Positions 1 to 25,488 of a stretch of DNA of 38,473 nucleotides are shown here, in pieces. Both the position numbers and the translations under genes were made by a program. Position 1 is the stretch's first letter. The number at the start of each line of letters is the position of its first letter. The stretch is taken from contig CAYFUK010000003.1 in the NCBI GenBank assembly GCA_964346325.1, positions 1 to 38,473 on the forward strand, in the 5' to 3' direction. This DNA is from an uncultured Candidatus Peribacteria bacterium (GTDB lineage Bacteria > Patescibacteriota > Gracilibacteria > UBA1369 > PNNO01). Under the pieces are notes generated by a model. That model had not been told where the DNA came from, did not search any database, and was given only the letters and a program-made list of their open reading frames with translations.

Positions 1-936
1 GAAGCCTTTAATGAGAAACGTTTTTTGATTCTTGCAGGATCTTTGGAAAGCCTTGATATAAGCCCTGTTGCCGAGGCAATTTGTGTGTATTGTGAAAAAG
101 AAAATATAACTTTCAAAAAAGTTAATGATTATAAAATTGTTAAAGGTATGGGTGTTATAGGTATTATGGATGATCAGGAATTTATTATAGGCAATGAAAA
201 GTTAATGCAACGATACAAAGTTAAAATGATTGATGATTTATACAATAAAGCCGAAGTAATGGCGCGTAATTTAAGAACACCCGTTTTTGTTGCACGAAAC
301 AGATCTTTGATTGGAGTAATAGGTGTTACGGACAAGCTTAAAAACAATGTTAAAAACGGTATAAATAATTTAAAAAAGAAATATAATATAAGTTTAATAA
401 CCGGTGATAATCAAATATTAACAAAAGGTGTTTGTGAAGAAATGGGTATAAAAAATTTTATTGCGGACCTTGATGAATTTGAAAAATTGGAGGCAATAAA
501 AAAATATCGCGAGAAAGAAGAGATAGTTTTAAGTATAGGGGACGGAAAAGAAGATAAAGATATTCTTGATGAATCCGATGTAGGCCTTTCATTGGGTGCT
601 TATTCGGATTTATCAACAAAAACGAATGATATAACTTTAATCAGCGATGATATAAATAAAATTGATTACCTTTTAAATTTATCAGAAATAATAAAAAATA
701 TTTCCAGAAAAAATCTGCAGATTACGGTCTTGTATCACTTTATCGTACTGATAATTGCAAGCGGATTATTAGTACCTTTCGTGAATTTATTAATACATCC
801 GGCTGCGGCAGCCTTATTAATGTTTTCTTCGTTTATGCTGATAGAAAAAAACAGTTTTGCCAGCTTTCGAAATAAATCCGCCTCTCTTCATCATGATTAT
901 TTAGTGCCTAATACGCCGCCATATTCCAACTCATAA
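1..936 (+). CDS. Heavy-metal (P1B-type) P-type ATPase, C-terminal part (5' end outside window); several motifs degenerate
   Basis: Frame is open from base 1. Contains GxGV, IGNEKLM, TGDN, GDG and D-V-G-x-x-G/ADI-like segments plus C-terminal TM helices. Canonical SEHP reads DISP and GDGxND reads GDGKED. Confidence 0.8.
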   Translation, partial: EAFNEKRFLILAGSLESLDISPVAEAICVYCEKENITFKKVNDYKIVKGMGVIGIMDDQEFIIGNEKLMQRYKVKMIDDLYNKAEVMARNLRTPVFVARNRSLIGVIGVTDKLKNNVKNGINNLKKKYNISLITGDNQILTKGVCEEMGIKNFIADLDEFEKLEAIKKYREKEEIVLSIGDGKEDKDILDESDVGLSLGAYSDLSTKTNDITLISDDINKIDYLLNLSEIIKNISRKNLQITVLYHFIVLIIASGLLVPFVNLLIHPAAAALLMFSSFMLIEKNSFASFRNKSASLHHDYLVPNTPPYSNS

Positions 937-2305: not shown

Positions 2306-2380
2306 TGGCTGGGGTGGAGGGATTCGAACCCCCGAATCGCGGGACCAGAACCCGCTGCCTTACCACTTGGCTACACCCCA
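2306..2380 (-). tRNA. tRNA-Gln(CTG)
   Basis: Minus strand folds as TGGGGTG/CACCCCA acceptor stem, GCGGG-TT CTG GT-CCCGC anticodon arm, TTCGAAT T-loop and encoded CCA; 75 nt. Confidence 0.97.
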
Positions 2381-2401: not shown

Positions 2402-3007
2402 TTATCGACTAAGGTGTTTGGTTTCATCCAGTATAATTTCTTCAACATCATGTACGCACTTAGCTATTTGATTATGAAGGCTTGGAACTTTATAATCACT
2501 TATCTCCCCGCCTCTTTCAAATTCTTTTTCCGCGCTTTCCATTCTCCGTTTAATCTCTTCTTCAGGGAGTTTACCACGTTTTAATATACGGTCAATTAAA
2601 TCCTGTTTATCGGGAACCGTTAAAAATATAGAAACCAAATTTTTTTCCGGTATTACTTTCTGAATCGATTCCAGCCCCTGCATATCAACTTCTCTTATAA
2701 TAATCCTGCCCTGCTTCAGAGCTTCTATTATTGGTGCTTTAATTGTTCCGTAATATTCTTCCTGATGTACAATTGCATATTCAAGTAATTCATTTTGTTC
2801 AATCATTCTTTTAAATTCTTCATCGGATACAAAGTGATAGGTCTGGCCGTCTTTTTCTCCGGGCCGTGGATCTCTTGTTGTGGCGGAAATAGGATACTCC
2901 CATTCAGAATGAAGCTGTTTTAGATGATTAATTACAGTCCCTTTTCCAACTCCCGAGGGGCCTGCAATTATAAATAATTTACCTGTTAATTCTTTTTCAT
3001 CAACCAT
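2402..3007 (-). CDS. gmk: Guanylate kinase
   Basis: GPSGVGKGT P-loop, SATTRDPRPGEKDG, YHFVS and YYGT motifs. Confidence 0.97.
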   Translation of the reverse strand: MVDEKELTGKLFIIAGPSGVGKGTVINHLKQLHSEWEYPISATTRDPRPGEKDGQTYHFVSDEEFKRMIEQNELLEYAIVHQEEYYGTIKAPIIEALKQGRIIIREVDMQGLESIQKVIPEKNLVSIFLTVPDKQDLIDRILKRGKLPEEEIKRRMESAEKEFERGGEISDYKVPSLHNQIAKCVHDVEEIILDETKHLSR

Positions 3008-3065: not shown

Positions 3066-3094
3066 TTGTATATCCCCCTTTTTAATGCTATAAT
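3066..3094 (+). promoter_or_regulatory. sigma70-type promoter TTGTAT-N17-TATAAT with extended -10 TG
   Basis: -35 at 3066-3071, TG at 3086-3087, perfect TATAAT at 3089-3094; points into the ORF-free structured region. Confidence 0.8.
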
Positions 3095-3106
3095 ATTAAG
3101 ATTTCA

Positions 3107-3118
3107 AGTTCTTTAAAA
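3107..3118 (+). promoter_or_regulatory. boxA-like antitermination motif AGTTCTTTAAAA
   Basis: Matches the rrn-leader boxA pattern GYTCTTT(A/G)AMA and sits just after the predicted transcription start. Confidence 0.5.
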
Positions 3119-3273
3119 TACAGAAATAAAAATAAAAAGCCGGGAGAGAGCGGATTATGAAGGCATATTCATGATCTCCCCCTCCTTACTTTTCGATGGC
3201 AGCCGGCTACTGCCACCTAAGAGTAACCTCCTTTAATAGGCCTTTATTGGCCTATTAAAAGGCAGTATCTTTG

Positions 3274-3384
3274 ATGTTTCAAAACAAAAACAAAAGAAAC
3301 AAAAACAAAATTGCTCCATATTATTTATGGGCATATCAAAACAAAAACAAACAAAAAGACGATGGTGGATCCGTCAAAAAATAA
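3274..3384 (+). CDS. Putative 36-aa mini-ORF MFQNKNKRNKNKIAPYYLWAYQNKNKQKDDGGSVKK embedded in the structured RNA
   Basis: ATG at 3274 and TAA at 3382-3384. The CAAAA repeats read in frame as (Q/R)NKNK three times. Only a weak SD-like AAGG lies upstream; translation is unproven. Confidence 0.35.
   Translation: MFQNKNKRNKNKIAPYYLWAYQNKNKQKDDGGSVKK
3279..3357 (+). repeat. Two C(A)3-5 repeat tracts sharing the 16-mer TCAAAACAAAAACAAA
   Basis: Identical 16-mer at 3279-3294 and 3336-3351, separated by a small hairpin (3312-3333). Confidence 0.85.
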
Positions 3385-3628
3385 TCCATCCAAAGAACGG
3401 TAAGGAGGCGGTCCCAAATTTAAGTTTACTTAAAGGACCACCTGTAACAAGAACGTTTAGCCGAACTTGTTACCCGCTCTTTGATCCCATAGAGTCCCAG
3501 TTACGTTTAGTAATTGATGAGGCCCTGTGAGAGATTAAAGAGATATATGTTGAGGCGTACTTCACACCTCTGCATCCATACCGCTTAACGCGGCCTTGCA
3601 TGTGTAAAAGAAGTGCGCCTCAAATTTT

Positions 3629-4192
3629 CTATGCTTTTCCCAAAGTTTTATCACCCTCTTTCCATCCGACAGGACACAAATCACCCGTTTGAAATGCTTT
3701 TACGAGTCTTATTAATTCATCAATGTTTCTTCCGATATTAACATCGTTTACAGTGTATGATTTTAAAACACCGTCAGGATCAATAATGAATGCTCCTCTT
3801 AAACTTATTCCGTTATCATAATCCAAAACATTATAAGAATAACTGACCGATTTTGTAATATCACTTAGCAAAGGATAGTTCAAATCTCCGACATCATTTT
3901 TTGACCAGGCTTCATGCGAATAAACACTATCAACACTAACTCCGAGAACCTGAGCATCGATATCTTCGAATTCCTTTTGTTTTTTACTTAATTCAATAAG
4001 TTCAGTCGGGCAAACAAAGGTGAAGTCAAGAGGATAAAAGAATAGCACAACCCATTTTCCTTTATAATCCTCAAGATGATAGTTCTTCATTTTACCTTTG
4101 TGATAACCCTCCATTTTAAAATTTGGAGCTGGTTTGCCTATTTGAAGACAGCACTCCGAACAACAAGCTGAGTCCTTGTGTGTATTTTCCAT
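3629..4192 (-). CDS. ahpC: 2-Cys peroxiredoxin (AhpC/Prx1)
   Basis: FYPLDFTFVCPTE peroxidatic motif, GRNIDE and resolving LCPVGW. Confidence 0.95.
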   Translation of the reverse strand: MENTHKDSACCSECCLQIGKPAPNFKMEGYHKGKMKNYHLEDYKGKWVVLFFYPLDFTFVCPTELIELSKKQKEFEDIDAQVLGVSVDSVYSHEAWSKNDVGDLNYPLLSDITKSVSYSYNVLDYDNGISLRGAFIIDPDGVLKSYTVNDVNIGRNIDELIRLVKAFQTGDLCPVGWKEGDKTLGKA

Positions 4193-25139: not shown

Positions 25140-25452
25140 TGGCTCTCGGGGCCGGACTCGAACCGGCAACCCTTCGGTTACACTTTACCCTCAAATTTCT
25201 TTGAAGTGTGGACTATCTCATCACCATATCCATTTTGATTTAGGTGCCGGGCGCTAGTGAAAGATTATTGTTGGAACTCACTTTCTAGTCTCTGAACCTT
25301 CCTATCAACCAATTGTCCCGATAGGCTTGGCTGCGGATTCCCATACCTTGTCGGATTAGGCTCCCCGCAATTCACCCAGTTATCATCGTAATATTTCTAT
25401 TACGAGCTGCAACTGTTTACAGCCGAATGCTCTACCATTGAGCTACCCGAGA
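25140..25452 (-). tRNA. tRNA-Asn(GTT), split: exon1 25452-25419, exon2 25180-25140
   Basis: Joined exons give a 75-nt cloverleaf TCTCGGG..GCTC/GAGC..TTCGG-CT GT^T AA-CCGAA..GCCGG TTCGAGT CCGGC..CCCGAGA G CCA. Confidence 0.93.
25181..25418 (-). ncRNA. Group I self-splicing intron (238 nt, IC-like, no homing endonuclease ORF)
   Basis: Exon ends in U and intron ends in G. P=AAUUGCGGGGAG, Q=AAUCCGCAGC, R=GUUCAGAGACUA, S=GAGAUAGUCC; P7 GACUA/UAGUC; P3 CUGGGUG/CGCCCGG; P1 GGCUGU/GCAGCU with U-G at the splice site. Confidence 0.93.
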
Positions 25453-25488
25453 ACATTTTATACAAGAATTACTATAATTAAATTAATC

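Follow-up and report, generated by a model that had tools for sequence, protein, structure and literature searches.

The stretch of DNA analyzed here (the window, at its full length of 38,473 nucleotides) is positions 1 to 38,473 of contig CAYFUK010000003.1 (assembly GCA_964346325.1), from an uncultured Candidatus Peribacteria bacterium. On its minus strand, the open reading frame (ORF) of guanylate kinase (gmk; 2402-3007; PF00625, E 4e-40) and that of an AhpC-type peroxiredoxin (ahpC; 3629-4192; PF00578) are separated by a gap of 621 bp, in keeping with the ~620 bp noted in a preliminary description of the locus. Positions ~3100-3628 of the window, on the plus strand, are a single-copy gene for a non-coding, highly structured RNA of ~525 nt, which, judging from the signals in its sequence, appears to be transcribed on its own. 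The RNA is conserved across Candidatus Peregrinibacteria/Peribacteria and in some allied Gracilibacteria.

Fold and covariation of the RNA

The plus strand of positions 3095-3640 folds with a minimum free energy (MFE) of -170.5 kcal/mol (z -9.3; none of 100 shuffles folds as well), and the minus strand of the same region reaches z -7.2. The numerous G-U pairs would turn into A-C mismatches on the opposite strand, which favors the plus strand; the orientation of the promoter and of the terminal hairpin likewise agrees with it. For the comparative analysis the cores of 54 distinct homologs were aligned by MAFFT (alignment A2), and the structure was named on alignment columns. Paired cells make up 84.8% of 2088, against 32-51% after the 3' partners have been shifted (slid) by 1-3 columns. 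Changes on both sides are found in 23 of 41 pairs, and the covariation score of 0.216 compares with at most 0.083 for the slid and 0.116 for the shuffled controls (0 of 500 shuffles reach 0.216). Because the sequences are related, the shuffle controls overstate significance, and the slid controls are the fairer guide. A model-fitted alignment (A3) gave 18 of 25 pairs changed on both sides and a covariation of 0.362 versus 0.131; being model-fitted, its counts, used below for hairpins B and E, lean towards structure. All alignments, whether by MAFFT or model-fitted, are uncurated. The RNA thus displays compensatory pairs beyond the controls, the general criterion for a structured functional non-coding RNA (ncRNA). 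A long-range helix, an H-type pseudoknot and a loop-loop contact build a compact core, and all three are kept by compensatory changes. The elements of the gene are the following.

3066-3094, plus strand: promoter, with the -35 element TTGTAT (3066-3071), a 17-bp spacer and the extended -10 element TGCTATAAT (3086-3094).
3108-3118, plus strand: boxA-like leader element GUUCUUUAAAA (DNA GTTCTTTAAAA), recognized by its likeness to the boxA of the 16S leader.
3142-3182, plus strand: variable 5' hairpin domain, in which GGGAGA...UCUCCC closes an inner hairpin (3154-3175) in the MFE fold.
3182-3189, plus strand: 5' strand CUCCUUAC of the long-range helix, with its partner at 3400-3407, from alignment counts.
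3189-3223, plus strand: helix II, CUUUU (3189-3193) with AAGAG (3219-3223), enclosing hairpin A.
3198-3202/3210-3214, plus strand: stem of hairpin A, loop 3203-3209; 5 of 5 pairs changed on both sides, 96.3% of cells paired.
3204-3209/3458-3463, plus strand: kissing-loop contact CGGCUA/UAGCCG; 5 of 6 pairs changed on both sides, 86.2% of cells paired.
3227-3265, plus strand: hairpin C, with 11 perfect pairs (3232-3242/3249-3259), from the MFE fold and the family alignment.
3280-3310 and 3336-3357, plus strand: two single-stranded A/C-rich tracts holding ACAAAAACAAA three times and flanking the variable hairpin D (3311-3333).
3358-3392, plus strand: H-type pseudoknot; stem GACG (3358-3361) with CGUC (3372-3375), loop UGGUGGAU (3363-3370) pairing with AUCCAUCCA (3384-3392).
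3392-3400, plus strand: junction strand AAAGAACGG, invariant or nearly so in the 54 sequences, followed by the 3' strand of the long-range helix (3400-3407).
3410-3439, plus strand: hairpin E; 5 of 5 pairs changed on both sides, 75.7% of cells paired (A3).
3444-3473, plus strand: hairpin B, whose loop holds the kissing strand 3458-3463; 8 of 8 pairs changed on both sides, 91.4% of cells paired (A3).
3474-3543, plus strand: 3' domain, GCUCUUUGAUC (3476-3486) with GAUUAAAGAGA (3533-3543) around an inner hairpin (3498-3516), from the MFE fold.
3552-3621, plus strand: long terminal hairpin, then AAAUUUUC to 3629; conserved CACCUCUG (3565-3572) and AUGUG; terminator-like.

Mean column identity among the 54 sequences is 32%, and the 24 invariant and 44 nearly invariant columns lie mostly in the junction strands. 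In the long-range helix 89.9% of cells are paired. Eight of its positions pair in 53-54 of the 54 sequences, and the outermost listed pair (columns 8/357) is not real; of its 9 listed pairs 2 changed on both sides, one of them in that non-pairing outermost column. Column pair 13-352 reads CG in 38 sequences, UG in 12 and UA in 4. In helix II, the pairs of the CUUU/AAAG core form in 44-54 of the 54 sequences, and a single two-sided change is seen there. The stem of the pseudoknot hairpin has 3 of 4 pairs changed on both sides (89.8% of cells paired); for the pseudoknot helix itself the figures are 2 of 5 and 79.9% in A2, and 3 of 6 pairs in the model-fitted alignment. The segment GAACGGU (3395-3401) can also pair with ACCGCUC, in 97.6% of cells and with almost no variation (model-fitted alignment), a pairing that overlaps, and competes with, the long-range helix as well as the 3'-domain helix GCUCUUUGAUC/GAUUAAAGAGA.

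The kissing contact occurs as at least seven distinct complementary word pairs across lineages, with the variants CGACUA/UAGUCG, CCAACA/UGUUGG, ACGACU/AGUCGU, UCGACUC/GAGUCGA, CCGAUA/UAUCGG, GACUUA/UAAGUC and CCCAAC/GUUGGG. Column counts are used for this contact, automatic loop extraction from MFE folds or by a stem finder having mis-picked hairpins in ~10 of 51-54 sequences; matched loops so extracted differ weakly from the mismatched control (mean 5.25 versus 4.16) because most loops share CGAC. In the family alignment, hairpin C was seen by inspection to vary in sequence and length while its pairing persists. The 5' hairpin domain differs among homologs in both respects, with GAGA/UCUC paired in 43 of 52 family cells. 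The 3'-domain helix, GCUCUUU.../...AAAGRGC, recurs by eye in distant homologs, in one of which it has shrunk to a plain hairpin.

Much of the fold drawn in the preliminary description survives this comparison. Its hairpins at 3154-3175, 3186-3226, 3232-3259, 3410-3439 and 3444-3473 are present, with compensatory changes wherever homologs were examined; its long-range pair 3181-3185/3404-3408 is present as well, with compensatory changes, and the covariation it had called for among homologs is abundant. Two of its helices are not confirmed. In the outer closing helix (3142-3153/3474-3488) the 5' strand varies in 7 of 13 same-family sequences against a nearly constant 3' strand CCGCUCUU, so that 79 of 104 cells are paired and 3-4 of 8 pairs are left in 4 of the 13. 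For the pair 3268-3276/3387-3396, the 5' strand UUCUUUG is restricted to part of the same family. The H-type pseudoknot (3363-3370/3384-3392) and the kissing contact (3204-3209/3458-3463) were absent from that description.

Transcription signals, homologs and spread

The promoter letters reported earlier are present and conserved in position. The -10 element and its TG extension are perfect, and the -35 element agrees with TTGACA at 3 of 6 positions, which is why the promoter is absent from a consensus-scan list; same-family and other-family homologs carry TTGAAT/TTGAAA-17-TGCTATAAT at the same position. Transcription likely starts near 3100-3101, at a conserved AGAUUU. The boxA-like motif reported for the leader is also there, as GTTCTTTAAAA at 3108-3118. 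It is identical at 10 of 11 positions to the 16S-leader boxA GUUCUUUAACA of a same-genus genome and is counted as boxA-like on this basis. The assembly of the genome itself showed no 16S 515 site, and rRNA leaders were therefore taken from four relatives; in these, boxA reads G[UC][UC]CUUUAACAU. The word recurs at the equivalent position in homologs, sometimes in degenerate form. Of 13 genomes of the order, all encode NusB and none was found to encode the Rho RNA-binding domain; shielding of the transcript from Rho by boxA was dropped on the latter ground. For rRNA, passages of PMC4807359, PMC8632103 and PMC10250234 discuss how Nus factors and boxA may serve elongation and co-transcriptional folding. 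At the other end, termination would occur at the 3' hairpin, to judge from its terminator-like form. This hairpin is missed by a simple terminator scan, and in one large family the terminal module is swapped for a plain GC hairpin and U-run.

The genome (1.12 Mb in 96 contigs, 99% complete) has one copy of the RNA. As proposed earlier, homologs were sought in related genomes, and both BLASTN and covariance models find them across Peregrinibacteria and allied Gracilibacteria. BLASTN against 60 relatives detects homologs in 12 of 12 same-family genomes (71-87% identity, two partial, most full-length) and short conserved pieces in other families. A covariance model built on window positions 3350-3487 (R1) was run on a sample of 151 genomes of the order (Candidatus Peregrinibacteria/Peribacteria) and has exactly one match in each of 74 of them, distributed by family as 12/12, 21/22, 3/3, 8/8, 10/11, 8/22 and 7/16, plus 4 of 6 single-genome families; there was no R1 match in six further families of the order (50 genomes). 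A broader model (R2) finds the RNA in 25 of 151 genomes of a class-wide sample. The families outside the order score 6/7, 1/1, 3/7 and 1/2, where some matches are weak and three loci have the whole architecture.

An exact 18-base junction word, searched in one genome for each of 185,579 species, occurs in 46 contigs: 34 from Candidatus Peregrinibacteria, Peribacteria or Gracilibacteria, 4 from the 'Patescibacteria group', 4 recorded simply as bacteria and 4 labelled otherwise. A 2-kb 'Nitrospirota' contig with the word carries the full RNA; the occurrences in alphaproteobacterium, Paludibacteraceae and Bacteroides contigs have no model match and are put down to chance. The word was not found in viral contigs, and phage or plasmid cargo was dropped as an explanation. 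The earlier suggestion that the RNA is possibly lineage-specific is supported by its occurrence in Peregrinibacteria and allied Gracilibacteria.

Model counts understate this spread, because divergent forms escape the models. The region upstream of gmk was inspected in five genomes (L124-L128) from three sister families without a model match. The first family has a diverged yet clear homolog at the same locus, with the kissing pair intact. The second has RNAs of 310-400 nt with the A/C tract, a long-range helix and the 3' CACCUCUG...AUGUG hairpin, and without the junction words. In the third family, the space between gmk and ssb is taken up by a rod-like RNA of ~180-190 nt that carries a boxA-like leader. 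The ncRNA in the place upstream of gmk, which is a gmk-ssb slot in several of these loci, differs in size; Rfam has no match to the five divergent-form loci. Among 20 rows of public sequencing runs matching part of the stretch, one is an RNA run (share 0.05, 0 contigs over the stretch). The three best DNA runs (shares 0.51-0.90) come from one sample, which may be the source of the stretch, and so lend no independent support; three runs of unspecified library kind gave short contig pieces of relatives.

The gmk gene is the divergent upstream neighbor in at least 48 of the 54 loci, a lower bound because contig ends cut some loci. A promoter-like site of gmk at 3059-3031 stands back to back with the RNA promoter, and the constant pairing of the two genes may reflect nothing more than this arrangement. 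The convergent downstream gene encodes SSB in 24 loci and AhpC in 8. Since this gene differs between loci, the RNA is not a leader, as had been argued before from the convergent orientation of ahpC.

Several observations concern tRNA genes and introns. A tRNA-Gln(CUG) gene (2306-2380, minus strand; Rfam, ARAGORN) lies directly downstream of gmk, and Rfam calls tRNA genes inside several homolog loci too. At 25141-25455 (minus strand) of the window a group I intron (RF00028, 96.2 bits at 25189-25428) apparently splits a tRNA gene at the anticodon loop, the flanks resembling tRNA halves ending in CCA; ARAGORN misses this tRNA gene. On a Peribacteria contig, near the RNA locus, L069:886-1353 (minus strand) matches the group I intron model exactly at the gathering score (50 bits).

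Known families, coding potential and novelty

Rfam 15 (4227 covariance models) was searched with the gathering score of each family as the criterion. Nothing reached that score in 3066-3625 or in 15 diverse homolog loci, and the best scores at E up to 10 were 8.6-19.7 bits against cut-offs of 50-100, which is chance level. The Rfam scan that the preliminary description had named as a check of novelty has therefore returned no family and nothing meaningful. The exclusion of RNase P, tmRNA and signal recognition particle (SRP) RNA, made there from the absence of hallmarks, is borne out by Rfam and by genome searches. RNase P RNA is encoded elsewhere in the genome (RF00010, G000:C57:537-913, 199.5 bits), as is tmRNA, which is marked by tRNA-like ends and a tag reading frame (RF00023, G000:C93:1226-1630, 104.1 bits), and ARAGORN finds no tmRNA in the window.

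For SRP RNA, whose domain IV helix is the part that these models recognize and the Ffh M domain binds, RF00169 matched neither the genome itself (0/1) nor any of 5 genomes, and RF01854 0 of 5. The Ffh M domain (PF02978) was not found in the genome itself; SRP54-type GTPase (PF00448) has no match over the cut-off there, and 5 relatives gave a single P-loop match of borderline score. According to parts of PMC8080830, many candidate phyla radiation bacteria lack SRP subunits. Loss of the particle is thus already known for this type of lineage, and with neither a model match nor an Ffh M domain the RNA was rejected as an SRP RNA. The 6S RNA model RF00013 matches neither the RNA region nor the rest of the genome; with this and the branched fold, which is unlike the ~185-nt rod with a central bubble typical of 6S RNA, identity with 6S RNA was rejected.

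Three ORFs in the region were compared with relatives. The 67-aa ORF has lost its start and has 2-10 in-frame stops in 12 of 12, the 43-aa ORF has stops in 12 of 12, and the 37-aa ORF has stops or frameshifts in 8 of 12; as all three are broken in most relatives, a small-protein gene was rejected. A template for reverse transcriptase, or a telomerase-like RNA, was also set aside, RVT_1 being present in 6 of 13 genomes and absent from the closed, RNA-bearing genomes G007 and G013. Mimicry of the 16S 3' tail by GAUC..CCUCCUUA is limited to the same family, other families reading CUCCCUAC, and is regarded as coincidence.

Searches of the open full-text literature on ncRNA of Patescibacteria, the candidate phyla radiation, Peregrinibacteria and Peribacteria brought up no such RNA, subscription journals being outside this scope. 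The main text of a paper on 224 motifs (PMC5737381) does not mention Peregrinibacteria, candidate phyla, Parcubacteria, gmk, guanylate kinase or boxA, and its supplementary lists could name the RNA otherwise. Within these limits the RNA probably represents an undescribed class and a new housekeeping RNA. The view of a stand-alone, large, lineage-specific and undescribed ncRNA class, first offered in the preliminary description, is supported by the lack of an Rfam match, the homologs, the varying downstream gene and the literature.

Candidate functions and comparison with known systems

The two A/C-rich tracts are unpaired in the MFE and consensus folds and conserved in sequence across the 54 homologs. 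The word ACAAAAACAAA occurs 23 times genome-wide versus 2.3 expected from composition. Of these copies 20 are outside the RNA, some directly before start codons and two in a second candidate ncRNA. Among 866 starts (crude gene calls), ACAAAAA[CT]A is found at -20..-1 in 1.4%, versus 0.1% at -60..-41. Shine-Dalgarno-like words are rarer upstream of the same starts (4.4% versus 7.9%), and G falls to 6-10%. These frequencies suggest that initiation in this genome may be independent of the Shine-Dalgarno sequence; the 16S 3' end of relatives still has CCUCC.

The second candidate ncRNA lies outside the window (L111, G000:C6:~186-606, plus strand) and is of similar design at ~420 nt. Its promoter reads TTGACA-17-TACAAT, and it opens with the same letters as the main RNA, GAUUUC, followed by a boxA-like GACCCUUAAAAAA; two copies of ACAAAAACAAA and a GC hairpin with a U7 terminator are present as well. 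It has no Rfam match, a fold z of -3.8 and BLASTN homologs in 11 of 12 same-family genomes; an RsmY match at this locus, not at the main RNA, is taken as chance.

The reading that we rank first, and propose tentatively, is that the RNA is a compact scaffold presenting its A/C tracts to a single-strand binder. It is placed first because no unpaired elements are more conserved than the tracts, which are also repeated and turn up again at translation starts and in the second RNA. The ~525-nt RNA would be transcribed from its strong extended -10 promoter, back to back with that of gmk. The boxA-like leader would recruit NusB and S10, as the rRNA leader of the lineage presumably does, and, given that no Rho was found, the Nus complex would help fast elongation and co-transcriptional folding instead of blocking Rho. 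The folded core would then act in trans, holding out the two A/C-rich tracts (ACAAAAACAAA). As these resemble the G-poor regions 5' of starts that are free of Shine-Dalgarno sequences, they would engage or titrate a partner that binds single-stranded RNA. The likeliest candidates are the 30S subunit/protein S1 and a translation regulator, both the partner and the effect being guesses.

Several points weigh against the scaffold. The enrichment of the motif at start codons amounts to ~12 genes with crude gene calls, and the tracts could be plain non-pairing spacers. Hfq, the known binder of A-rich repeats, was found in 0 of 13 genomes of the order, and an Hfq sponge was dropped on this count. 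The boxA-like word is degenerate in several homologs, e.g. GAUAUUUGAAA, and with 157 sites at ≤1 mismatch in so AT-rich a genome it is common by chance; the case for boxA therefore rests on position and conservation. The RNA is known here from DNA sequence alone. Finally, the conserved unpaired UUUUCGAUG, AAAGAACGG and CCGCUC would equally suit a catalytic or ligand-binding core.

This last point leads to the strongest rival, which we nevertheless consider unlikely: a ribozyme or ligand-binding RNA, where the pseudoknot, kissing loops and long-range helix form a pocket and the A/C tracts are linkers. The size of the RNA, its tertiary complexity with covariation, its single copy per genome and the near-invariant unpaired UUUUCGAUG, AAAGAACGG and CCGCUC among 24 invariant and 44 nearly invariant columns all agree with such a core. 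However, neither a substrate, a cleavage site nor an associated gene points to chemistry, and the tracts are conserved in sequence beyond composition.

Two further readings are improbable, and to the same degree. The RNA might be an RNA-only homo-oligomer in which loop-loop pairing between molecules builds dimers or cages, as reported for ROOL, GOLLD and OLE. Large bacterial RNAs do form homo-oligomers, as parts of PMC12286853 report, and covariation of the 6-bp contact 3204-3209/3458-3463 is blind to whether pairing is intra- or intermolecular; yet the two hairpins flank the long-range helix, which could join them within one molecule. Alternatively, the RNA might be ribosome-associated, made and folded like rRNA and serving as an extra part or assembly factor of a reduced ribosome. 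Candidate phyla radiation bacteria are said to have unusual ribosomes, and the boxA-like leader akin to the lineage's 16S leader, the promoter of stable-RNA type and the one copy per genome would fit; the proposal is purely inferential, however, and the RNA is not co-located with rRNA genes.

More improbable still is a 6S-like RNA, much expanded and divergent, that regulates RNA polymerase, or some other known housekeeping RNA whose divergence hides it from the Rfam models. It could draw on the absence of a 6S RNA match from the genome and on the gmk-ssb slot of one family, which holds the ~180-190 nt RNA closed by a long rod-like stem. Against this, neither the RNA, its homologs nor the short forms have a 6S match in Rfam, the fold, branched and with tertiary contacts, is no rod with a central bubble, and the kinship of the short forms to the main RNA is conjectural. 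A cis-acting leader or antisense RNA for gmk or ahpC, a small-protein gene or a reverse-transcriptase template is very unlikely. In its favor are the divergent position of gmk in 48 of 54 loci, the presence of three ORFs (37-67 aa) and A/C repeats that could resemble a template; against it, the RNA overlaps no gene, the downstream gene varies, the ORFs have stops or frameshifts in relatives (the 67-aa ORF in 12/12) and reverse transcriptase occurs in 6 of 13 genomes, not in two closed RNA-bearing ones.

Large bacterial RNAs with comparable conserved tertiary structure are rare, and those studied proved to be ribozymes, ribonucleoprotein machines or self-assembling RNA cages. Here such an RNA is encoded once per genome throughout a whole branch of the candidate phyla radiation with ~1-Mb genomes, and as these have lost SRP, Rho and Hfq, what remains likely matters. 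A more far-reaching proposal, possible if doubtful, is that the RNA represents a new housekeeping class, universal to Peregrinibacteria and allied lineages, and acts as a ribozyme or a self-assembling particle (RNA-only or RNA-protein), which these reduced cells would have evolved, perhaps as a substitute for proteins or lost systems. With delimited ends (the start being inferred), a covariation-backed fold, a pseudoknot and a kissing contact, the RNA is a concrete target for structure determination. It also provides a marker gene for Peregrinibacteria-type bacteria and is possibly the first boxA-led non-ribosomal structural RNA, and the shorter second RNA of similar design, together with the reduced forms in sister families, offers a natural deletion series.

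Among known systems, the housekeeping RNAs RNase P RNA, tmRNA, SRP RNA and 6S RNA resemble the RNA described here in being single-copy and chromosomal, with their own promoter, a conserved structure and a wide distribution in the lineage. They differ from it in identity, RNase P RNA and tmRNA being encoded elsewhere, SRP RNA and its proteins missing, and 6S RNA giving no match. CrcZ and RsmY/Z, also structured RNAs, sequester an RNA-binding protein by exposing short single-stranded motifs in repeated copies, and the A-rich repeats of CrcZ are bound by Hfq/Crc; the present RNA is much larger, with a conserved tertiary core, in an order with Hfq in 0 of 13 genomes. The leader word GUUCUUUAAAA resembles the 16S-upstream GUUCUUUAACA, and NusB is encoded, so a link to the boxA of rRNA leaders may be envisaged; unlike these, it precedes a 0.5-kb non-ribosomal RNA, in genomes where no Rho was found. 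Finally, in contrast to OLE, ROOL and GOLLD, whose Rfam models it does not match, the RNA belongs to a different phylum and is chromosomal and present once per genome, with a boxA-like leader and A/C-rich single strands. It shares with them a length of several hundred nt, many conserved helices, pseudoknots or tertiary contacts and a stand-alone gene, and loop-mediated contacts are a feature of the ROOL, GOLLD and OLE assemblies too, according to passages of PMC12286853.

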